Of a stretch of 64,000 nucleotides of DNA, positions 10,149-64,000 are shown one piece after another. This stretch comes from Candidatus Woesearchaeota archaeon (GTDB lineage Archaea; Nanobdellota; Nanobdellia; Woesearchaeales; JABGXB01). The position numbers and the translations under genes are program-made. The notes beneath the pieces were generated by a model, which was not told the origin of the DNA, did no database searches, and worked only from the letters and a program-made list of their open reading frames with translations. The stretch is taken from assembly GCA_018675975.1 (NCBI GenBank), contig JABGXB010000003.1:267821-331820 (forward strand). Reading direction: 5' to 3'. How positions within the stretch are numbered: position 1 is the first letter of the stretch; each line of letters starts with the position of its first letter.

Positions 10149-11102
10149 ATGAAAACAAAAAAAACTTTAACTAATTTAGTTTTATCAAGTTTAATTTCAC
10201 TAACGGCTTTTTCTTATAACCCAATGGATACTGGCTATATAGATAATTATAATTTTTATACAAAAAGTGATGCCAGAGAATATATTGTAAAAGAAGAAGC
10301 TGCACTATTAAAACATAGAGCTAAAACAACTAAGAATGAAAATTATAATTTAATTGCAGAAAAATTATTAGACAATATTGAATTAATGAGTAAACAAGCA
10401 TTTCGAGATTTTGAAAAAATACAATTACCTGGGGTACAAATAATTTTAAGTAGTAAAAATTTTGAATCTAGAGTTCAAAATGCATATTTAAAACTAAATG
10501 AAAATTTCCAATTAGATCCGGAATTAAATCAAGCAATAAATAATTTTAATACTTATGAAATAAAAAAATATATTGAAAATCAAAATTTATCAAAAAGAAA
10601 AGATTTAAATTCAGCACAATTAGAATTATTAAATAAATATTCAAAAACAATTAATTCATTTTTATCAGAAAATTATGAAACATTTTCACAAAAATCTTTA
10701 AGTTTACTTTCAAATTATGATTTTAATACACTTGAATTTAAACAATTTAATGATATTCAATATAATACAGTTGATTTAATGTATAAAAAATCAATTGGTG
10801 CATATAATGATACAATAGATAAATTATCTCAAAGCCCATTTGAATCAAAAATATTTAATCAAGTAATTGGTTTAAGTAATAGCATGTTCGGTTTTTTTAA
10901 TAAATTAGATAAAAAATATGGAGTAACAGATAATTTTAAATTTATAATAAATAAAATTGAAACTTATGTAAATGATCAAAATAAAAAAAGAAAAGAAAAA
11001 ATCCAATTAGAATTTATAGATGAAAAAGCACAGTATAATGGAGGAGATTTAAAATATAAATTTCATATCGATAGAGACTCTATATTTCAAAAAATGTTTT
11101 AG
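10149..11102 (+). CDS. hypothetical secreted protein
   Basis: 317 aa; N-terminal signal peptide MKTKKTLTNLVLSSLISLTAFS; N/K/Q-rich. Confidence 0.5.
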   Translation: MKTKKTLTNLVLSSLISLTAFSYNPMDTGYIDNYNFYTKSDAREYIVKEEAALLKHRAKTTKNENYNLIAEKLLDNIELMSKQAFRDFEKIQLPGVQIILSSKNFESRVQNAYLKLNENFQLDPELNQAINNFNTYEIKKYIENQNLSKRKDLNSAQLELLNKYSKTINSFLSENYETFSQKSLSLLSNYDFNTLEFKQFNDIQYNTVDLMYKKSIGAYNDTIDKLSQSPFESKIFNQVIGLSNSMFGFFNKLDKKYGVTDNFKFIINKIETYVNDQNKKRKEKIQLEFIDEKAQYNGGDLKYKFHIDRDSIFQKMF

Positions 11103-11149
11103 CCATTAAATTTATAAAAGATTTGCCTACCTTAGTTGTATAAGTCTAA

Positions 11150-11232
11150 GCTGAGGTCGCATAGTCTGGTATTGCGCCGGATTGCTAATCCGGTTCCTTC
11201 GGGAAGCGTGGGTTCAAATCCCGCTCTCAGCG
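11150..11232 (+). tRNA. tRNA-Ser (GCT)
   Basis: Acceptor gctgagg/tctcagc, anticodon loop ttGCTaa, long variable arm ttccttcgggaa, T-arm gtggg ttcaaat cccgc; followed by a T6 run. Confidence 0.85.
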
Positions 11233-11356
11233 TTTTTTATTTATTTTATTATAGTCATCTATACTAAAAAAATCCAAATATATATTATGGATTTGAACTA
11301 AAAGTTCACTTTCAAATGCTCTGCATTTGAAAGGTCGAAAATAAATATTTTCAGAC

Positions 11357-11374
11357 AATCCCGCTCTCAGCGTT
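11357..11374 (+). repeat. exact 18-bp copy of the 3' end of tRNA-Ser(GCT) (aatcccgctctcagcgtt; original at 11217..11234), also followed by a poly-T run
   Basis: Read directly; 140 bp downstream of the original; a perfect 11-bp hairpin (11309..11333) lies between the two copies. Confidence 0.85.
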
Positions 11375-11422
11375 CTTTTTTTAATAATAATATTTTATAA
11401 ATTAACAAATCATAAAAATAAT

Positions 11423-11695
11423 ATGAGAACTTCTTTATATAAAAATGCAATTGAATGTTCAAATGCTCTTGATGAAAAATTAAAAGAATTTGAATTAAAA
11501 TTAATAAATCCTAAAGATCATTTTGGAAGAGATTTAACTTCTTTTGAAAAAGGAAAATTAGCATATATAAGTCACCTTCCTAATCAAGAATTAAATATAT
11601 TAAATATGGGTCCTCCAAAAAAATTTTATGAAAGATTCAAATATAATTTAGGACAATTATTTGCATCTTTTGTAGATTCATATAATATAGATTAA
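11423..11695 (+). CDS. hypothetical small protein
   Basis: 90 aa ORF with normal composition; no recognised motif. Confidence 0.35.
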   Translation: MRTSLYKNAIECSNALDEKLKEFELKLINPKDHFGRDLTSFEKGKLAYISHLPNQELNILNMGPPKKFYERFKYNLGQLFASFVDSYNID

Positions 11696-11711
11696 AATTC
11701 TACAATATTTT

Positions 11712-13850
11712 TTAAAGATTTTTTTTATTATTATATTCTTTAATTTTACGAGACTGTTCTAAAAGAGTTTCTTCTTTTTCTTTTAATTTAAAATCAACAA
11801 AAGCAGATTTAAAATCCCTAACTAAATATTTATCATCTTTTGAATCAATATTATATTTAGAAATAATCATTTGTGATTGAGGCAAACCAATTTTATATGC
11901 TCTAGATAATTGTTGTTGAGTTAAATATGTTTCTTGAGAATTTATTTCTTTTATTCTTTCAATAATTTTATCTCTTTGTTCCCAATATTTATCTATAAAT
12001 TTTGCAGGATTAAAAAGAGGATCTGACATACCATTTAAAGGAATTAATGCACCCTCATAAGTAACTGCTTTTTTTGCTTTTTCTTCCTTTTTTTTACCAT
12101 GAACATCAATTACGGAATAAAATTCCTTTTCAGTTAAAATTGTATTTAATTCATCTTGATTATCTAAAATAAATTGTCCATATTCAGTAAGTGCATTTTT
12201 AATAGATTCTTGAGTTCCACCAGTAAATTTTGTTAATACAAGACCCGTATATCTTTGACCTTGTCTATATTTTTTTTGTCCTTCTAAAACCGTAAAAAAA
12301 CTAGACCAATTTAATGTTCCAAAATAAGTTTGAAGTACTAATAAATGTGTTTTCGAATGTGGCTCTTTTAAAAAATCCAAATAATCTTTATCAGTCAATA
12401 CATATTCATTACTATTAATTTCTTTATTTTCAGATTCAATTTCTTTTTGAGTAGCACCATCAAGAACAATTGCAGCTAAATCTTTGATTCCATTTTCAAT
12501 ATTATTATCTACAACTTCATCTGAAATAATAGAAACTAAACCTTTCTTTTTATTTTCTGATTCTACTTTATCTTTTAAAAATTGTTTTTGTCCATCTAAA
12601 ATTTTATCTCTATCATACCAAAAATAATCCATAAAATCTTTCAATACGTATTGTTCATTTTCATCAGGTTTAATATCAATACTTTCAAATATTCTATGAA
12701 ATTCTTTTCTTGTAATAGTGCTTTTCATCAGTAATATTGTTTTTAAATCTTCTTTTAAATAAGAATTATTTAATTGATCGTTATTTGTTTCATAAAAATT
12801 ATCTCTATTTTCTATGGAACTTAAAATTGCTTTTTCCTTTCCAACTAAATCAAAACATTCTCGTAAAGAAACACCAAAGTAATTTCCATCTTTTTTAAAT
12901 AAATTATCTAAATCAAAAGATTTAGTAAATTGTAATCTATCTTTATCTAAAATTTGATTATAAATTGCAAATAAAGTATACTTATTATGAGTTTGCTTAT
13001 AAAATTCATCTAATTTTTCAGATTCAAAAGTATTCTTTTCTAATGATTCAATAATAGCATGTCTTTTATCCCAATGATAATCAATAAAACCATGTAATGT
13101 AAAAACTCTTTGTTCGTATTCATCTTTAAAAATTTCTGACGAAATACTTTGAAAATGACTTTTAAAATTTCTTTCTGTAATATTAATTGCATCCATTACT
13201 ATTTTTCGAACATATCTTCGAGTTAATTTTTTACTTAAAACAGTTTCATATTCTTTTAAAAAAGTGTCTCTTCTTTCAATTGCTGCTTCAACATCTTTTT
13301 TCTTACCAGTTAAATCTCTATGTTTAAACAATAAACTTCCTAAATAATCACCCTCTTTATTTTTTTTCCCAAATCTAATTAATGGAGTAAAACTTGAAAT
13401 AGGTTTATCTGTAACTTCATTAAAAATTGCATATAATTCGTGTTTTGGATGATAAGTATTAAAAAATGTTTTTTCTTCTTCTTTTGGACTCTCTTTAACA
13501 ACTTCAGATTTTACATCCTTACTTTCGACTAAAGTCTCTAAAGCAATAGGAGCTTCAACAATAGGAATTTGAACAACAGGCTTAGATTTAATTTTTCTTT
13601 TCTCTTTTTTAACTTTGTCTTCAGTTTCAATATCTTTTTTTACATCATCTATATTTCTACTACTTGCCCTTAATAAAAAAGTCTCTAATGAAATTTTTGA
13701 TTGAGTTTCAACACTATCTTTTTCAACTGGTGTTTCTTTTCCCATTGTTTTATTTACAAAAAGAGTAAACGGACTGATTTCATTAGACTCGATCATTACT
13801 ATTGAGTTAAAAATAACAATTATAAACATTATACCAAATAAAAGATACAT
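11712..13850 (-). CDS. hypothetical membrane-anchored lysine-rich protein with three internal repeats
   Basis: 712 aa; N-terminal TM helix, K/E-rich linker, then three repeats each ending DYHWDKRHAII / DYFWYDRDKIL / DKYWEQRDKII; last gene of the gatD-gatE string. Confidence 0.5.
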   Translation of the reverse strand: MYLLFGIMFIIVIFNSIVMIESNEISPFTLFVNKTMGKETPVEKDSVETQSKISLETFLLRASSRNIDDVKKDIETEDKVKKEKRKIKSKPVVQIPIVEAPIALETLVESKDVKSEVVKESPKEEEKTFFNTYHPKHELYAIFNEVTDKPISSFTPLIRFGKKNKEGDYLGSLLFKHRDLTGKKKDVEAAIERRDTFLKEYETVLSKKLTRRYVRKIVMDAINITERNFKSHFQSISSEIFKDEYEQRVFTLHGFIDYHWDKRHAIIESLEKNTFESEKLDEFYKQTHNKYTLFAIYNQILDKDRLQFTKSFDLDNLFKKDGNYFGVSLRECFDLVGKEKAILSSIENRDNFYETNNDQLNNSYLKEDLKTILLMKSTITRKEFHRIFESIDIKPDENEQYVLKDFMDYFWYDRDKILDGQKQFLKDKVESENKKKGLVSIISDEVVDNNIENGIKDLAAIVLDGATQKEIESENKEINSNEYVLTDKDYLDFLKEPHSKTHLLVLQTYFGTLNWSSFFTVLEGQKKYRQGQRYTGLVLTKFTGGTQESIKNALTEYGQFILDNQDELNTILTEKEFYSVIDVHGKKKEEKAKKAVTYEGALIPLNGMSDPLFNPAKFIDKYWEQRDKIIERIKEINSQETYLTQQQLSRAYKIGLPQSQMIISKYNIDSKDDKYLVRDFKSAFVDFKLKEKEETLLEQSRKIKEYNNKKNL

Positions 13851-19402: not shown

Positions 19403-21691
19403 TTATCCAAAATAACTTTTAATATTATTTTTTATTTCTCTTGCATTAGAAAATTTAAATTTATCTTTAATTTCCTCATATGCTTTTTCAATTTCATCAT
19501 TACTACTAGGTCCAACCCTTTTTAATGCATCATTAAAATCATCCATTGTTACAGATTCCGAATCCATATTTTTTCTCAATGCACTAATTCCAGACTCCCT
19601 ACATAAACTTTGTAAATCTGCACCAACATAATATTCTGTTTCTGTTGCTATAAATTCTAAATCTACATCTTCAGATAATTTCATATTTTTTGTATGAACT
19701 TTTAAAATATTTAATCTTGCTTCATAATCAGGCGTCCCAACTAAAATAATTCTATCAAATCTTCCTGGACGTAATAAACCATTATCAATTATATCTGGTC
19801 TATTAGTTGCAGCAATAATCACAACATCATGTAATTCTTCTAAACCATCCATTTCAGTAAGTAAAGTATTTACAATTCTTTCTGTAACTTTTGAATCTGT
19901 TGTATTTGTTCTTTTTGGTGCAATTGCATCAATTTCATCAAAAAATAAAATACTCGGACTTGTTTCACGTGCCTTATTAAATAATTTTTTAATAGTTTTT
20001 TCAGACTCACCAACCCATTTACTAATTACATCACTACCTTTAACTAAAATAAAATTAGCTTTTGATTCATTAGCAACTGCTTTAGCAAGTAATGTTTTTC
20101 CAGTACCTGGAGATCCATAAAGTAAAATACCTCTTGGTGGATTAATTCCAATTCGTGAAAAACTTTTTGGATGTTTTAATGGCCATTCAACTGCTTCTTT
20201 CAAATCGTTTTTAACATCATTTAAACCACCAATATTTTCCCAACTAACTTTTGGAACTTCAATAAATATTTCTCTAAGTGCACTAGGTCTAACAACTTTT
20301 AATGCATCTTTTAAATCATCTTCACTAACAACTAATTTTTTTAATACACTTTCAGAAATTGGTTCATCTTCATTTAATTTAATTTCAGGAAGTAAACGCC
20401 TCAAAACAATCATTGCTGATTCTTTTACTAAACTACTCAAATCAGCACCAGTAAAACCATAAGTTTGATCTGCAATTGTTTTTAATATATCAGGATTTGT
20501 AAGTGGCATATTTCTTGTATGAATTTTTAAAATATGTAATCTACTATTTGCATTTGGTGCACCTATATGAATTTCACGATCAAATCTTCCAGGCCGTCTC
20601 AATGCAGGATCTAAAGAATTAACTAAATTACTTGCAGCAACTACAATAACTTTGCCTCTTTTATTTAATCCATCCATTAATGTTAATAATTGAGCTACTA
20701 CTCTTCTTTCAACTTCACCTTTACTTTCTTCTCTTTTAGTTGCAATTGCATCAATTTCATCAATAAAAATAATACTTGGGGCATTTTTTTCTGCTTCTTC
20801 AAAAATCCCTCTTAGATTTTTTTCACTTTCCCCATAAAACTTTGACATTATTTCTGGACCATTAATTAAATAAAAACTAGCATTTGTTTCAGCTGCAACA
20901 GCTCTTGCAAGTAATGTTTTACCAGTTCCAGGAGGACCATGTAATAAAACTGCTTTTGGTGCTTCAATACCTAAATGATCAAATAATTCAGGATGTTTTA
21001 GAGGAACTTCAACCATTTCTCTAATTTTTTTAACTTCATCTTCTAAGCCACCAATATCTTCATAACTAATATCATGAATATGTGAACTATCTTCAACTTC
21101 ATCAACACCTTGTGATTGAAATTCTATTATAGTATCATTTGTAATTATAACTGGCTTATTATTAGGTTTTGTAGATATAATAAAATATTTCATATCTGAA
21201 TGAAATAAAAATTTATTTTGCATATCATCAATCAATCTATAAATTTCATTATAATGTGGACTACCTGATAATGTTTTTCTTCTTCTTTTACTCCCACCAA
21301 TACTTACAACATCACCTTTGTAAATTGGTCTACCCAAAAGACCTTGTTTAAATAAATTTGCGGGAGCATCAATAATAATATTTTTTCTTGCAGGGGCAAT
21401 TACAACTTTTTCAGCAGATTTAACATCAGCCTTTCTAACTTTTACACTTTCACCTAAACTAGTTCTTGCATTACGCCTTACAATACCATCAATTCTAATT
21501 ACAGGCCTACCTATGTCCCCAGGATATGCCCTATCAACAATAGCAACTGTTTTTCTCGTACCCTCAATTTCAACAATATCGCCAACTTCAATATCAATTT
21601 GTTTCATTAAATTATAATCTATTCTAACTATACCCTTATTAACATCATCTTCAATTGATGCAATTACATCCAACTGTATTTCTTTTGACAT
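19403..21691 (-). CDS. CDC48/VCP-like AAA+ ATPase (two AAA domains)
   Basis: 762 aa; N-domain plus two Walker A sites GPPGTGKT / GSPGTGKT, Walker B DEIDA, second-region-of-homology motifs. Confidence 0.9.
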
Positions 21692-24455: not shown

Positions 24456-25112
24456 TTAAATATTATTTTTAGAATTATTATAAATATATTTTGCAGCATC
24501 CAAAAAATCTTTTGCAATAAAAATATCTCCTTTTAATTGTTCAACTTTTTGTCTATCTCCTAGTTCTCTTGTTTTATAACTTTCAACTAAAATTCCAGTT
24601 CCTCCAATATTTAAACCCATTTGAACGTCAGAAAAACGATCCCCAATCATATAAATTTTACAATCTTCTTTTTTTACATTTAAATCAGTTAATGCTTTTT
24701 CAATCATACCAATATTTGGTTTTAAATCAAGACAGTTTTCTCTAATATATTTTTGATCTACTCTTCTTCCTTTTTCTAGTGCTTTTTTTACATAATTAGA
24801 ATCAACAAATGGACATGCATAATAATGATCAACTAAAGCTTCTTCATCTCTTAATTTATCTAAAATATATCTATTTACTTCATGCATTCTCTCAAAGGTT
24901 AAATTATCAAAATTTCCTCCTTCAAGTGCAACTCCAGATTGATTAGTTAAAATAAAAAACCGTGAATTTGGAATCTGATTAATTAATTTAATTCCATCCA
25001 CAACACCATCTAAAAAACTAACTTGTTCACGCCAATTAGAACTACTACCTAAATAAAAATTTTTATCTAAATTTATAGTCCCATCCCTATCAGAAAAAAC
25101 TAAAGTATACAT
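24456..25112 (-). CDS. HAD-IIIA phosphatase, GmhB (D,D-heptose-1,7-bisphosphate phosphatase) / histidinol-phosphatase-like
   Basis: 218 aa; motif I FSDRDGTIN, motif II ILTNQSGVA, motif III KPNIGM, motif IV GDRFSDVQMGLNIG. Confidence 0.7.
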   Translation of the reverse strand: MYTLVFSDRDGTINLDKNFYLGSSSNWREQVSFLDGVVDGIKLINQIPNSRFFILTNQSGVALEGGNFDNLTFERMHEVNRYILDKLRDEEALVDHYYACPFVDSNYVKKALEKGRRVDQKYIRENCLDLKPNIGMIEKALTDLNVKKEDCKIYMIGDRFSDVQMGLNIGGTGILVESYKTRELGDRQKVEQLKGDIFIAKDFLDAAKYIYNNSKNNI

Positions 25113-25181
25113 AATTTCAAAAAAATTATTATATTTATAAAATTAATTAGAAAATAAAAATTTAAATAAAAAAAATAAAAA

Positions 25182-25856: not shown

Positions 25857-25933
25857 TTTAAATCCTCTTAAGTCTAGTTTAAAGATTACCTAACTAGAAA
25901 TATAATAATAGGTATAGCTCATTCTTTATAAAT

Positions 25934-26161
25934 TTAATTCTTACTTACTTTTATTATATTAACTGGACATGATAATTCAGCATTTTTTGCTGATTCATAT
26001 TCATCTTCAGTTTCAACCTTATTAAAAAAATCTTTATTTTGTTTAGAATCAATTAAATTGCTTTTCCCATCCTTTTCATCAATAATAAACAAATTAGGAG
26101 CTTCTTCAACACATGCATTACAACCTATGCATTTTCGTCTTAAATGATTTATATTAATCAA
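25934..26161 (-). CDS. small 4Fe-4S ferredoxin
   Basis: 75 aa; CIGCNAC ... CP cluster-binding pattern; overlaps the stop of the upstream U32 gene by 8 nt. Confidence 0.65.
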   Translation of the reverse strand: MININHLRRKCIGCNACVEEAPNLFIIDEKDGKSNLIDSKQNKDFFNKVETEDEYESAKNAELSCPVNIIKVSKN

Positions 26162-33604: not shown

Positions 33605-36600
33605 ATGGAACAAAGTATTGAAACAAAACGAACTGGTATAAAAGTTAAAAAAGTTTTTTGTAGTGATAATATAAGCCCATTTGAAACTGTTGAATTTGAA
33701 AACAGATCAAGTGTGATAAAAAATAGAGATGGTTCTATATTATTTGAAATAAATAATATTCATGCTCCAAAAAAATGGTCGCAAGTTGCCGTAGATATAA
33801 TGGCACAAAAATATTTTAGAAAAAGTGGAGTTCCACAATATGATGAAAATCAAAATGAAATTAAAGATGAATTTTCAAATATAATTACAGGTTCAGAAAC
33901 AGATATTACTCAACCAATAAAAAGATTAACTGGATGTTGGAGACATTGGGGAGAAAAATATAATTATTTTGATACGCAACAAGATGCAATTAATTTTGAA
34001 CAAGAAATACAATATATGTTATTACATCAAATCGCTGCACCAAATAGTCCACAATGGTTTAATACGGGACTTAAATGGGCATATAATATTTCTGGAAGTG
34101 CACAAGGACATTATTATGCTGAACATGAAACAGGTGAAATTAAATTATCTGAGGATGCATATTCAAGACCTCAACCGCATGCATGTGCGGATTATTATAC
34201 ACAAGTGTATACTGATAAGGGTACAATGTATATTGGAGATATAGTTGAAAATAATTTAACTAATATAAAAGTATTTGATGGAGAAAAATATGTAAAAGTT
34301 CTTGCAATCAAAAACAATGGAAAAAAAGAAGTGTTTAAAATTCAATTAAAAAATGGAAATTATATTAAATTAACTCAAGATCATTTAGTGCTATCATCAC
34401 AAAAAAGAAAAAAAAATGGTGGAAATTATAACTGGAATTATGTAAAAGATGTAAAATTAGGTCACAAATTACAACAACCATTAATTCTAGATATTAAAGA
34501 AAAAAATGTATTTAGTGATGATTTAGCAAAAGCAAGATTAGCCGGTTGGATAGTTGGAGACGGATCAGTTGGAATTTATGAAAATGTAATGAGATTGGAA
34601 ATTATTTCTATTAAAGAAGAAGAATTTGAATCAATAATAAATGATATTCAAGAAGTATTTGGACAAGAAGTTAATTTTTGGATTAGTAAATTTAAAACAA
34701 AAAACGAAAATTTAGATGGTAAAAGAATTCATTTAGCAGGTAAAAAAATACATAAATTAATTGAAGACTATGATTTACTAAAATCTTCATTTAATGCAGA
34801 AGTACCTCAAAAAATAATTAATGGGTCACCACAAGAAAAAAGAGAATTTTTAAAAGCCTTATTTCAAGCAGATGGTTGTGTCAGAATTAGAAAAGATGAA
34901 AATAGAAATTCAGGAGATGTGTGTTTAACTACAATTTCAGAAAATCTTTCATTTGGAGTTTTACAATTATTAAATTCATTAGGTATTTATTGTAGAATTA
35001 ATAAATATAGTGATAAAAGAGAAAATCGAAAAGATGTTAATCAAGTTATAGTATCTTATGGTAGTGCAAGAGAACAATTTCAAGAACAAATTTCTTTTAT
35101 ATGTTCTCAAAAAACCGAAAAATTAGAATTATTAAATAAAATTATAACAAAATCAAAAACACTTCCATTAATAAGAGAAGAAACAATTATTTCAATTGAA
35201 TCTGAAGGCATTAAAGATGTTTATGATATTCAAACAGAATCTTCAAAATTTCTTGGAAATGGAATTGTAATACATAATTGTTTTATTCAATCAGTTAAAG
35301 ATGATTTAGTTAATCAAGGTGGAATATTTGACCTTTGTACAAGAGAGGCAAGAATATTTAAATATGGTTCTGGAACTGGTTCAAATTTTTCACAATTAAG
35401 AGGTCAGTCTGAAAAATTATCAGGTGGTGGAAGATCTTCAGGTATGATGTCATTTTTAAAAATATTTGATGTGGCAGCTGGAGCAATTAAATCAGGTGGT
35501 ACAACAAGACGTGCAGCAAAAATGGTTTGTCTTGATTTGGATCATCCAGAAATTATTGAATTTATTGATTGGAAAGCAAATGAAGAAAAAAAAGTTGCTA
35601 ATTTAATTACTGGTTCAAAAAATTCAAAATATCATTTACAAAAAATATTAAAAGAAGCAAGTTCAAATTCAAATATAGAAAAAAATCCAAAATTAAAATC
35701 AGCAATTAAAGAAGCTATTGAACAAAATATTTCTTTAAATTATATTGATAGAGTTTTAAAACTTGCAAATCAAGGAATAACTGAATTTGAAACTCCCGAG
35801 TTTGATAATCATTTTGAAGGTGAAGCATATTCTACAGTTAGTGGACAAAATTCAAATAATTCAATAAGAATACCAAATTCATTTTATGAAGCTGTTCATA
35901 AAGACTTAGATTGGAATTTAAAAAATAGAACTGATGGAAAAATTTCAAAAACTGTAAGAGCAAAATGGCTTTATGATAAAATTGGACAAGCTGCTTGGGC
36001 TTGTGCAGATCCTGGTGTTCAATTTGATACGACAATTAATGAATGGCATACATGTCCAAAAGATGGAAGAATTAATGCAAGTAATCCTTGTTCTGAATAT
36101 ATGTTTTTAGATGATACTGCATGTAATTTAGCTAGTATTAATTTAATTCATTTTATTAATGATAGTGGACATTTTAATGAAGAAAAATTTGCTCATGCAT
36201 GTGAACTTATGACAATTGTTTTGGAAATTTCAGTTACTATGGCTCAATTTCCAAGTGATGAAATTGCAAAAAGAAGTTGGGAATATAGAACATTAGGTTT
36301 AGGTTTTGCAAATTTAGGGACATTACTCATGGTTAAAGGAATTTCTTATGATAGTGATGAAGCTAGAAGTATAGCTGGAGGAATTAGTGCCATAATGTGT
36401 GGAACTGCTTATGAAACATCTGCTAAACTCGCAAAACATCTAGGACCTTTTAACAGATATGAACATAATAAAGATGACATGTTAAGAGTTATTAGAAATC
36501 ATAGACGTGCTGCATATAATGTTTCAAATGAAGAGTATGAAAAATTAGAAATTACTCCAGTTGGCATTGATGAAAATTTATGTCCAAATAATATTTTACA

Positions 36601-38146
36601 AAAAGCTAGAAATTCATGGGATAATGCACTTGAACTTGGACAAGAATATGGATTTAGAAATGCACAAGTAACTGTTATTGCACCAACCGGAACTATTGGA
36701 CTTTTAATGGATTGTGATACTACAGGAGTTGAGCCAGACTTTGCAATTGTTAAATATAAAAAACTTGCAGGCGGTGGTTATTTTAAAATTGTAAATCATT
36801 CAGTTATTAAAGCATTGAGAACTTTAGGTTATGAAAAAGATCAAATTATTGATATTAAAAAATATTGTATAGGTCATCAAACATTAGTGGGTTGTCCAAC
36901 CATAAATCATAAAATTTTAAAAGATAAAGGATTTGATGAAGAAAAATTAGAACTTATTGAAAAACAATTAGAAACTGCATTTGATTTGAGTTTTGTTATG
37001 AATAAAAATATTTTAAGTGAAGAATTTTTAAAAAAATTAGGATTTAGTGATGAACAATTAAATTCTGAAATGTTTGATTTACTAGAAGAATTAAAATTTA
37101 CAAAAGAACAAGTTGATATTGCAAATGAATATGTTTTTGGAACAATGACAGTTGAAGATGCTCCATACTTATTAGAAGAACATTATTCAGTTTTTGATTG
37201 TGCAAATAAATGTGGAAAAAAAGGTAATAGATATATTGACACTTATGGACATATTAATATGATGGCAGCAGTTCAACCTTTTATTTCTGGTGCAATTAGT
37301 AAAACAATTAATATGGATTCAGAAGTTAGTGTTAAAGATATTTTAGATGCTTATGAAGCTAGTTGGAAATTAATGCTTAAAGCAAATGCATTATATAGAG
37401 ATGGATGTAAATTAAGTCAACCATTAAATACTGCTGTTTTTGAAAGTGAATACAATTTAAATTTATCTGAAGAAGATATTGATGAAACAGTTGATTCAGC
37501 AGCAATTCAACAACAAATTCAAACAATGAAAGCAAATCAGTTGCCGAGAAAAAGAGGTGGTTTTGTTCAAGAAGCAACTGTTGCAGGTCACAAAATATAT
37601 TTAAGAACTGGTGAATATAATGACGGAAAATTAGGTGAAATTTTTATTGACATGTATAAGGAAGGTGCTGCCTTTAAAGCACTAATAAATTGTTTTGCAG
37701 TTGCAATAAGTAAATCTCTACAATTTGGTGTTCCTTTAGAAGAATTTGTTGAACAGTTTACATTTACTAGATTTGAACCGGCAGGTTTAGTAACTGGACA
37801 TGAATATATTAAAAATTCTACGTCAATATTAGATTATGTATTTCGTGTTCTAGGCTATGAATATTTAGGTAGAGATGATTTAATTCATGTAAAACCTAAA
37901 AGAAAACCACTAGACATTATAGAACATGAAGATGATCCAAGAGATAAACATAAAACACTAGATAGTTTTTCTAATAGAAAAAATGTAGAAGAGACTAGAA
38001 ACGAAATGCTTTTTAAAAAAATTAATACTGCCAAATCAAGAGGATATACTGGAGAAGCATGTGGTTCTTGTGGTAGTATGAGAGTAAAAAGAAATGGAAG
38101 TTGTACACTTTGTGAAGATTGTGGTTCTACTAGTGGTTGCAGTTAG
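33605..38146 (+). CDS. nrdJ: ribonucleotide reductase, class II-like (adenosylcobalamin-dependent NrdJ type), containing one intein
   Basis: 1513-aa precursor; N-terminal [21 protein letters not shown] (class II WSQ..A.DI...KYF motif), active-site [22 protein letters not shown]-terminal Cys-rich zinc-ribbon tail; no nrdB nearby. Confidence 0.85.
34184..35278 (+). mobile_element. intein (365 aa) with LAGLIDADG homing endonuclease domain inserted in nrdJ
   Basis: Starts with Cys (PQPHA|CADYYTQVY), ends IVIHN followed by the +1 Cys (|CFIQSV); two LAGLIDADG blocks [11 protein letters not shown] and [11 protein letters not shown]; extein junction restores a contiguous PHACFIQS. Confidence 0.8.
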
Positions 38147-63077: not shown

Positions 63078-63160
63078 ACGCCGAGACTGAGATTCGAACT
63101 CAGAATCCCTTACGGGACAAGCTTTCAAGGCTTGCGCAATACCAGATTATGCGATCTCGG
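63078..63160 (-). tRNA. tRNA-Ser (TGA)
   Basis: Reverse complement: acceptor gccgaga/tctcggc, anticodon stem caagc/gcttg with loop ctTGAaa, long variable arm tcccgtaagggat, T-arm ctgag ttcgaat ctcag. Confidence 0.8.
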
Positions 63161-63201
63161 CAACGTTTTTGACGAATCGCGACCATTAATGAAATTAATG
63201 A

Positions 63202-63216
63202 CATGCGATCTCGGCA
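63202..63216. repeat. exact 15-bp copy of the 5'-terminal segment of tRNA-Ser(TGA) (atgcgatctcggcaa; original 63148..63162), with a small tandem attaatga x2 beside it
   Basis: Read directly; 54 bp upstream (in the tRNA's sense) of the tRNA 5' end. Confidence 0.8.
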
Positions 63217-63255
63217 ATCTTAAATACATTCTCAAAAATTATTGTTTTTATAAAA

Positions 63256-64000
63256 TTAATGACTTTTTGCAATATAAACCACATGTTTTGCAGGTTTACC
63301 ACAAACAATACAATTACAAAATACTTCCTCATTTTTATTAAACCAAACACCTCTTACTTCAGCTTTTGTTTCTTTTTCAATTACTCCAGCACATTCCGCA
63401 CCATCCATATCAATTGAACAAAATGAAGTTCTTATCATTTTACCATCATCAATATTTTTTTTAATATCATTTTTATTTTGAACATCTATTACAGTTTTAT
63501 CAAATACTTCATCTGCTTGAGAAATCATATTTTGAGTAAAAGTTTCTTTAATTGAATTAATATGAGGAATTAAATCATTCATTGAAACAGTATTTTTTTC
63601 AGATATGTCTCTTCTAAAAATAATAATTTGATTATTTTCAACATCACGCGGACCAACTTCAATTCTTATAGGAACACCTTTTAATTCCCAATGATTATAT
63701 TTGTAACCCGGGCTAAATTCTTTTCTATCATCAATTTTAACAGAATAATTTAATTTTTCTAATTGATTTTTTATTAACTCCACTCTAGAATCTACAATAT
63801 CAAATTTATTTTTAAAATAAATTGGAATAATTATTATTTGTAATGGAGCTATATCCCAAGGTAATTTTAAACCAGTATCATCACCATGAAATGTTATTAA
63901 AGCACCATAATTTCTAGAATGACATGGACCATAACAAGTAATCCAACCTAATTTTTCACTTTCATCCTTATCTTTAAATTTAACATTAAATGCCTCACTA
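63256..64000 (-). CDS. proS: prolyl-tRNA synthetase, archaeal/eukaryotic type (C-terminal part; gene continues beyond the window end)
   Basis: Anticodon-binding domain SPGYKYNHWELKGVPIRIEVGPRD, C-terminal Zn-binding domain ending ...YIAKSH; the same frame stays open upstream of the listed Met to position 64000, encoding class II catalytic-core sequence (...CYGPCHSRNYGALITFHGDDTGLKLPWDIAPLQ...). Confidence 0.8.
   Translation of the reverse strand, partial: SEAFNVKFKDKDESEKLGWITCYGPCHSRNYGALITFHGDDTGLKLPWDIAPLQIIIIPIYFKNKFDIVDSRVELIKNQLEKLNYSVKIDDRKEFSPGYKYNHWELKGVPIRIEVGPRDVENNQIIIFRRDISEKNTVSMNDLIPHINSIKETFTQNMISQADEVFDKTVIDVQNKNDIKKNIDDGKMIRTSFCSIDMDGAECAGVIEKETKAEVRGVWFNKNEEVFCNCIVCGKPAKHVVYIAKSH

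Follow-up and report, generated by a model that had tools for sequence, protein, structure and literature searches.

In the genome of a Candidatus Woesearchaeota archaeon, the gene for tRNA-Ser(GCU) is followed, at an offset of 140 nt, by an exact copy of its own 3' end, and the two copies enclose 122 bp of gene-less, palindromic DNA. We somewhat favour the reading that this locus is a decayed attachment (att)-type scar of site-specific integration into the 3'-distal part of tRNA-Ser(GCU), in which the element itself would be almost entirely gone. The locus combines an exact terminal repeat, a characteristic geometry and a strongly structured insert, and recombinase genes are absent from its vicinity. 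It lies in a stretch of 64,000 nucleotides (contig JABGXB010000003.1, positions 267,821 to 331,820 of the forward strand; hereafter the window), an archaeal chromosome segment of ~23% GC with ~9% G+C at third codon positions (GC3). The window carries gatD/gatE, a CDC48-type ATPase, ftsZ, Spt5 and the suf operon. The features of the locus, in window coordinates, are the following.

11111 to 11118, forward strand: TATA-like octamer TTTATAAA, the likely promoter element of tRNA-Ser(GCU), starting at -39 from the tRNA 5' end.
11150 to 11232, forward strand: intact tRNA-Ser(GCU) without encoded CCA (ARAGORN, and Rfam tRNA at 55.6 bits over the full length).
11217 to 11234, forward strand: direct-repeat copy 1 (attL-like core), comprising T-loop A58-U60, the T-stem 3' strand, the acceptor 3' strand, discriminator G73 and TT, as placed by the Rfam alignment.
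11233 to 11238, forward strand: T6 run directly 3' of tRNA-Ser(GCU), read from the sequence as a putative archaeal-type oligo-T terminator.
11235 to 11356, no strand assigned: gene-less insert between the repeats, 122 bp, 22% GC, with five consecutive perfect palindromes.
11289 to 11298, forward strand: GGATTTGAAC, an inverted T-loop 10-mer spanning the 3' arm of palindrome 2 and the 5' arm of palindrome 3.
11309 to 11333, no strand assigned: perfect 11-bp hairpin CTTTCAAATGC-TCT-GCATTTGAAAG with loop TCT and four G-C pairs.
11357 to 11374, forward strand: direct-repeat copy 2 (attR-like), a displaced 3'-terminal tRNA fragment.
11376 to 11382, forward strand: T7 run 3' of copy 2, read from the sequence; under the scar model, the candidate original terminator.
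11394 to 11401, forward strand: TTTATAAA octamer, a leaderless-type promoter of ORF90 that starts at -29 from the ATG and lies outside the repeat pair.
11423 to 11695, forward strand: open reading frame ORF90, an orphan gene of ordinary codon usage directly right of the scar, whose sole match among 1.84 billion protein representatives is itself.

The direct repeat AATCCCGCTCTCAGCGTT (11217-11234 and 11357-11374) is identical between its copies at 18/18 nt and consists of the last 16 nt of tRNA-Ser(GCU) followed by TT. Its inner end is A58, in the T-loop, and its outer end is the discriminator plus 2 nt of trailer. No further copy of AATCCCGCTCTCAGCGTT was detected in the window at up to three mismatches, with 0 expected by chance, and a chance origin of either the repeat or the 11-bp hairpin was rejected by the expected counts. 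The displaced fragment lies downstream of the intact gene, on the same strand and the same replicon, and it is a terminal rather than an internal piece of the tRNA. Copy 2 alone is unable to make a T arm or an acceptor stem, as the partner strands are missing upstream and no GGG occurs in the insert. Runs of T were also found 3' of tRNA-Ser(UGA), tRNA-Gln and tRNA-Gly. The initial annotation of this DNA, made from the sequence alone, had described a tRNA-Ser(GCT) whose last 18 nt recur 140 bp downstream, T-runs behind both copies and a background of roughly 75% AT. ARAGORN and Rfam both call the tRNA at 11150-11232, the recurrence proved exact with small refinements of coordinates, the T-runs are the T6 and T7 runs listed above, and the estimate of composition is close to the measured value.

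In the Islander description of genomic islands, the signature of integration is an intact tRNA gene accompanied by a displaced terminal fragment in the same orientation, with 3' fragments lying downstream and 5' fragments upstream, and the known crossovers fall in the anticodon loop, the T-loop and the T/acceptor junction (PMC4383910). For upstream integrations, the D-loop has been given as the crossover site (bioRxiv 10.1101/2020.11.02.365908). Islands carrying 3' fragments number 3,760, against 159 carrying 5' fragments (PMC4383910). In Thaumarchaeota, att sites have a median length of 17 bp and the main targets are the 3'-distal regions of tRNAs, with a rare 5'-distal case at a tRNA-Ser (PMC6563490). 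A second, mirror-image arrangement was observed at tRNA-Ser(UGA).

63079 to 63161, reverse strand: tRNA-Ser(UGA).
63149 to 63163, reverse strand: gene-proximal copy of a 15-nt repeat, consisting of TT plus tRNA positions 1-13 (TTGCCGAGATCGCAT).
63164 to 63202, reverse strand: insert of 39 bp between the 15-nt copies, with an 8-bp hairpin.
63203 to 63217, reverse strand: distal copy of the 15-nt repeat, a displaced 5'-terminal fragment of tRNA-Ser(UGA).
63247 to 63254, reverse strand: TTTATAAA octamer; counted from the G1-equivalent (63215) of the displaced fragment it starts exactly at -39, and counted from the actual 5' end of the tRNA at -93.

Here an exact 15-nt copy of the 5' end lies 54 nt upstream of the gene in the same orientation, and its inner end falls at the border between D-stem and D-loop. 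Both loci agree with the known footprint in every geometric respect, with inner ends at the T-loop and at the D-loop border and repeats of 18 and 15 bp. Each repeat extends 2 nt beyond the mature tRNA, as is predicted for an element-borne copy selected to rebuild the gene. Among the six tRNAs in ~84 kb of this genome, the two serine tRNAs are the only ones with a nearby terminal self-fragment, compared with 1 of 26 tRNAs in a control of 1.17 Mb from other archaeal loci. The sole control case is a tRNA-Arg(GCG) in an unrelated euryarchaeal metagenome-assembled genome (locus L072, 20443-20518), in which 12 nt of the 5' end recur 324 nt upstream (20119-20130). To the left of the window, tRNA-Gly(UCC) (locus L125, 1788-1858) has no nearby self-fragment.

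The promoter of tRNA-Ser(UGA) bears on whether DNA was gained at this second site. The box at 63247-63254 is the only TTTATAAA octamer there, and its spacing of -39 from the displaced fragment equals that found at tRNA-Ser(GCU), while its distance from the present gene is -93. The displaced fragment therefore marks the original 5' end of tRNA-Ser(UGA), and the spacing indicates 54 bp of inserted DNA, made up of the 39-bp insert and one 15-bp repeat. Through the spacing of promoter and gene, the second scar provides independent evidence that DNA has been inserted. The palindromic octamer occurs at 21 sites in the window (for instance at 11394, 18111, 19357, 25134 and 47023). It starts exactly at -29 from the ATG in five protein genes; the spacings -30, -31, -37 and -39 each occur at a single further protein gene or tRNA, -31 being that of tRNA-Met. 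This regularity suggests that the mRNAs of the organism are predominantly leaderless and have in common a TATA box that varies very little. Upstream of the tRNA-Ser(UGA) fragment, an AT-rich stretch of 27 nt (63234-63260) is 93% identical to 25121-25147, the promoter region of a HAD-hydrolase gene (24456-25112); this similarity probably reflects shared promoter architecture.

A displaced tRNA end could in principle belong to tRNA processing rather than to integration. Split, permuted and multi-intron tRNAs have been described in archaea, including Nanoarchaeum, and the locus could accordingly be read as a tRNA intron with an alternative 3' exon, or copy 2 as the 3' piece of a trans-joined split tRNA. 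The pairing prediction lends this some appeal, as in a hypothetical read-through transcript the acceptor 5' strand pairs with copy 2 at a predicted probability of 0.93. However, the tRNA is complete without splicing, and copy 1 is followed by the T6 terminator. The sole candidate for a bulge-helix-bulge (offset 140) has two G-U wobbles in the central helix and no flanking pairs; moreover, the direct repeat makes both strands of that helix one and the same sequence, and no 4-mer of the repeat is Watson-Crick self-complementary. A bulge-helix-bulge intron was rejected for want of a valid motif. For a split tRNA, the 5' partner fragment was not found in the 64-kb window, and copy 2 is unlike the acceptor stem of tRNA-Ser(UGA). 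Taken together, we regard an intron or split tRNA as extremely improbable.

The insert between the 18-nt copies is built almost entirely of palindromes, which lie back to back at 11244-11269, 11270-11294, 11295-11307, 11309-11333 and 11334-11356. Its fold is far more stable than those of shuffled sequences (z = -5.9 with RNA parameters and z = -8.2 with DNA parameters), so the folding check that had been proposed with the initial annotation returned a strongly structured insert. Pairing is predicted for 90 of the 122 nt, in 45 pairs (12 GC, 33 AU, 0 GU). The 11-bp hairpin at 11309-11333, which the same annotation had singled out as unusual for so AT-rich a background, is rare indeed, with ~0.015 stems of 11 bp and at least four G-C pairs expected in 64 kb of such DNA, whereas perfect hairpins of A-T pairs only are as frequent in the window as chance predicts (14 observed vs 13 +/- 3.6). 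No credible open reading frame was detected in the 122 bp. The second most structured intergenic region of the window is 25857-26153 (z = -4.2, forward strand), between the peptidase U32 and Spt5/NusG genes, where an Rfam search returned nothing above chance.

Such structure raises the possibility of a functional structured nucleic acid, either a small RNA with a tRNA-like 3' tail, as the initial annotation had offered as its alternative, or a protein-binding or insulator module acting at the DNA level between the tRNA and ORF90, with the repeat kept by selection. Among the window's 20 intergenic regions, the one that holds the insert has the strongest structure (z = -5.8; next -4.2), and 24 of the 27 G/C bases of the insert lie inside stems. 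Copy 2, although rich in G+C, has stayed intact in a genome with a GC3 of ~9%, and by eye a TATA-like AT stretch can be seen ~25 nt upstream of the 11-bp hairpin, with T7 after copy 2. The nature of the pairs points the other way. None of the 45 predicted pairs is a G-U wobble, so the structure is equally good on either strand, and as a fold prediction it fits DNA palindromes better than an RNA long shaped by selection. Rfam 15 searched over the insert at E <= 10 gave nothing above chance besides the tRNA itself, and a C/D-box or H/ACA small RNA was rejected, with no correctly ordered boxes visible by eye and only chance-level Rfam scores. Furthermore, copy 2 lacks the partner strands for a tRNA-like minihelix, the T6 run should stop read-through, and the leader region with the analogous insert at tRNA-Ser(UGA) has no significant structure (z = 0.23). 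Of the small-RNA proposal, the strong structure thus held up, while a family match and G-U pairs were not found, and we consider a selected functional module of either kind very unlikely.

Apart from one 10-mer, nothing in the insert significantly resembles either flank, the tRNA body or any other part of the window, which indicates inserted DNA rather than a local duplication. The 10-mer is GGATTTGAAC, the reverse complement of the T-loop motif GTTCAAATCC that is common to the tRNA-Met, tRNA-Ser and tRNA-Gln of this genome, and it is the motif that the initial annotation had described as the reverse complement of a T-arm. It occurs four times in the window against 0.19 expected, the other three occurrences being real tRNA T-loops. 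In a local alignment of the insert with the reverse-complemented tRNA, 0.4% of shuffles score as well. Two duplication models were rejected. A tandem duplication of the tRNA 3' end with its downstream DNA would rest on a 12-mer shared with ORF90 at a spacing of 147, and 35% of shuffles score as well as this match. A decayed second tRNA copy is contradicted by an insert that is unlike the tRNA body and by blank ARAGORN and Rfam results there.

The same comparisons bear on an accident of replication or repair, in which template switching or microhomology-mediated filler DNA would have produced the locus with no mobile element involved. Template switching can produce palindromes, mobile-element genes were not found nearby, and at 22% GC the insert is host-like in composition. 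On the other hand, the insert copies no local sequence, with alignments to both flanks and to the tRNA body at chance level. Two independent events would be needed, each duplicating exactly the stretch of tRNA from a loop to the end of the gene, which is unexpected for random repair. The probability that we assign to such an accident is accordingly low.

A further alternative takes the repeat as a target-site duplication (TSD) and the 122 bp as a miniature non-autonomous element, or as the solo end of a casposon-like (Cas1-integrated) element that targets tRNA ends. Casposons have tRNA 3' ends among their targets, generate TSDs of 14-35 bp and can leave gene-less solo terminal inverted repeats (solo-TIRs) (PMC4779613). 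The 18-bp repeat falls within that range, a gene-less remnant of 122 bp would also fit, and dense palindromes are more natural in a transposon end than in the random interior of an element. The ends of the inserts argue otherwise, as terminal inverted repeats (TIRs) were sought in both the 122-bp and the 39-bp insert and end-to-end identity was at chance level; a TIR-bounded transposon or casposon was rejected on this ground. No Cas1 (casposase), family B polymerase or transposase gene was found in the 84 kb covered of a genome of roughly 1 Mb, and the module is single-copy in the window, where no second copy of the hairpin or insert was detected, so that the dispersed copies expected of a miniature inverted-repeat transposable element are absent within the window. 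The second scar lies at a tRNA 5' end, which is not among the casposon targets listed in PMC4779613. Finally, the positions of the repeat ends, 2 nt past the mature tRNA and at a loop border, are predicted by an att core and not by a staggered cut. A TSD origin is thus unlikely, although it would accommodate the palindromes.

Under the preferred reading of a decayed integration scar, a mobile element bearing a copy of the last 16 nt of the tRNA would have recombined with the gene at the junction of T-loop and T-stem, most likely through a tyrosine-type integrase. The intact tRNA would have been rebuilt from element sequence, so that copy 1 would be the attL-like site and would have brought its own T6 oligo-T terminator. 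The original 3' end and the original T7 terminator would have been pushed downstream, where they would now form copy 2, the attR-like site; the direction of the event is itself part of the proposal. Nearly the whole element would later have been deleted, leaving 122 gene-less bp of five palindromes. The scar is probably inert at present, since the tRNA is complete and would stop at T6, and ORF90 has its own TATA box at -29, to the right of copy 2.

The enzymes and the parent element of such an event were sought in several ways. Pfam was run on every open reading frame of 100 aa or more in the window; for the genes called in the adjoining 10 kb to each side, precomputed Pfam hits were inspected (~84 kb in total). 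The 18-mer AATCCCGCTCTCAGCGTT had a single match in IMG/VR, in an unrelated GC-rich sequence and attributable to chance, and four further patterns from the insert had no viral match. The phage and plasmid collections returned generic tRNA similarity only. No third, degenerate att copy that would bound a larger island was detected in the window, and a larger island spanning ORF90 and the neighbouring 712-aa frame (ORF712) was rejected, with no third att copy and with orphan genes of ordinary composition. The only recognisable selfish element in the window is an intein with a LAGLIDADG homing-endonuclease domain in the class II (B12-dependent) ribonucleotide reductase gene (33605-38146, forward strand). 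A gene pair encoding a MazE antitoxin and a ParE toxin lies just outside the window, ~9 kb to the left (locus L125, 555-1057).

Several observations weigh against the scar reading. No integrase, recombinase, transposase or Cas1 domain was detected in the reading frames of at least 100 aa of the window or among the genes called in the 10-kb flanks. IMG/VR and the phage and plasmid collections likewise yielded no element with the core or with a piece of the insert. In metagenomes, 22 of the 25 matches to the 18-mer are unrelated GC-rich chance sequences, and the remaining three come from this organism with the arrangement unchanged. Neither an empty nor a fully occupied allele was seen among the assemblies or the metagenome matches. 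The composition of the flanking orphan genes gives no hint of recent acquisition. Islander-type detection looks for an integrase near the repeats and a length of 2-200 kb, whereas no such gene is present here and the repeats are 122 bp apart; likewise, the documented archaeal tRNA fragments of Thermococcaceae flank elements of 9-23 kb (PMC9897764). The displaced fragments at both loci are perfect (33 nt in total, 18 of them G/C) despite a GC3 of ~9%, which bounds their neutral divergence below ~0.09 per site at 95%. Under such AT pressure, intact fragments imply that both elements were lost quickly while the repeats were spared. Lastly, the scar model does not predict a remnant made up almost wholly of perfect palindromes, which it leaves unexplained. 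For the attL/attR stub proposed in the initial annotation, the geometry and the second scar therefore count in favour, while an integrase, a parent element and an alternative allele were not found.

The locus was compared across assemblies and relatives. The interval from the tRNA to the reading frame is base-for-base the same in eight assemblies, and the locus lies inside gapless alignments of at least 99.94% identity in twelve assemblies (NCBI, ENA, Logan, JGI). An assembly artefact or duplication, which the initial annotation had named as a result that would overturn it, is excluded by the agreement of these 12 independent assemblies. Assemblies from unrelated projects are 99.94-100% identical over 2-21 kb, and by these sequence comparisons the host is a globally clonal, phylogenetically isolated marine DPANN ("Woesearchaeota") population with a streamlined genome of about 1 Mb. 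Since the population is clonal, constraint cannot be read from an unchanging locus. Among other GatE proteins the nearest are 47-50% identical, and with relatives this distant there is no orthologous locus for comparison; no tRNA-Ser(GCU) was detected near gatDE in these relatives.

Anchoring the search on the upstream or on the downstream reading frame returned solely the known arrangement. The predicted empty-site junction is GGTTCAAATCCCGCTCTCAGCGTTCTTTTTTTAATAAT, and an alternative allele would be recognised by any sequence other than the observed one after ...CTCAGCGTT. One contig, k141_2463 of ERZ27237589, stops 59 nt into tRNA-Ser(GCU) (locus end 11060), while contigs of sister samples read through; the stop could reflect low coverage or a sample-specific variant at the integration site. 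Homologues of the three genes around the tRNA (317, 90 and 712 aa) were not detected in collections of 5.8 billion and 1.84 billion proteins. These orphan genes, at 10149-13850, have ordinary codon usage; for the longest of them, some strains have a call of 694 aa instead of 712 aa. Visual inspection of the 712-aa protein shows a module, marked by the motif F-x-D-Y-x-W-x-x-R-D-K, that is repeated several times.

If the scar reading is true, tRNA-targeting integrative elements have been active in an isolated, streamlined ~1-Mb marine DPANN lineage for which no virus or plasmid was found, and such elements can erode to 122 bp and 39 bp without a single mismatch between the att copies. Scars of this size will always escape island finders that ask for an integrase and more than 2 kb, and they are to be expected in tRNA annotation that takes fragments into account. 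Only the dense palindromes are not predicted by the ordinary explanation, and they could be the recognition end of an unknown element. Carried further, the five-palindrome module of 122 bp together with the 18-bp repeat might itself be a complete element, miniature, gene-less and site-specific, or else the solo end of an element that is as yet undescribed and mobilised by Cas1 or an integrase. In either case the targets would be tRNA-Ser termini, the palindromes would be recombinase recognition sites, and the 39-bp insert at tRNA-Ser(UGA) would be a second trace of the same activity. We advance this proposal as a speculation and consider it unlikely.

Among known systems, the closest in geometry are the islands and proviruses integrated at tRNA genes (tDNA) (PMC4383910, PMC9897764), with which both serine tRNA loci share an intact tRNA that would have been restored by the insert, an exact terminal fragment, its placement on the correct side in the same orientation and an inner end in a loop. 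They differ in the lack of an integrase and in the 122 or 39 bp between the repeats, compared with 2-200 kb for Islander islands and 9-23 kb for those of Thermococcaceae; Islander itself discards candidates below 2 kb or without an integrase (PMC4383910). The integrated elements of Thaumarchaeota resemble the present case in that their hosts include AT-rich marine archaea, their att sites are short, tRNA 3'-distal regions are the target and a rare 5' case occurs at a tRNA-Ser, but the thaumarchaeal elements include genes and integrases, and empty sites in related strains confirmed them (PMC6563490).

Archaeal non-canonical introns and split tRNAs likewise place extra sequence at the T-loop region, whereas here the tRNA is uninterrupted and has no bulge-helix-bulge. 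In Streptococcus, cis-mobilisable elements (CIMEs) are att-flanked remnants of integrative conjugative elements that lack recombination genes and persist at a tRNA-type site. CIMEs are bacterial, kilobases long and still equipped with cargo genes, so their likeness to the scar is a lead only. The casposon solo-TIRs of Methanosarcina mazei (PMC4779613) are similar in being gene-less archaeal remnants at a target site, with tRNA 3' ends among the targets and flanking repeats of 14-35 bp. They were, however, recognised by their match to the TIR of a full-length casposon, while no casposon, Cas1 (in 84 kb) or TIR is present here and the scar at tRNA-Ser(UGA) is at a 5' end. The solo-TIRs are a precedent for gene-less remnants of archaeal elements at their target sites (PMC4779613). 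The kind of footprint described here is thus already known, and what is unusual is its reduction to 122 and 39 bp, the presence of two scars within 52 kb, the isolated host and the stub of five palindromes.

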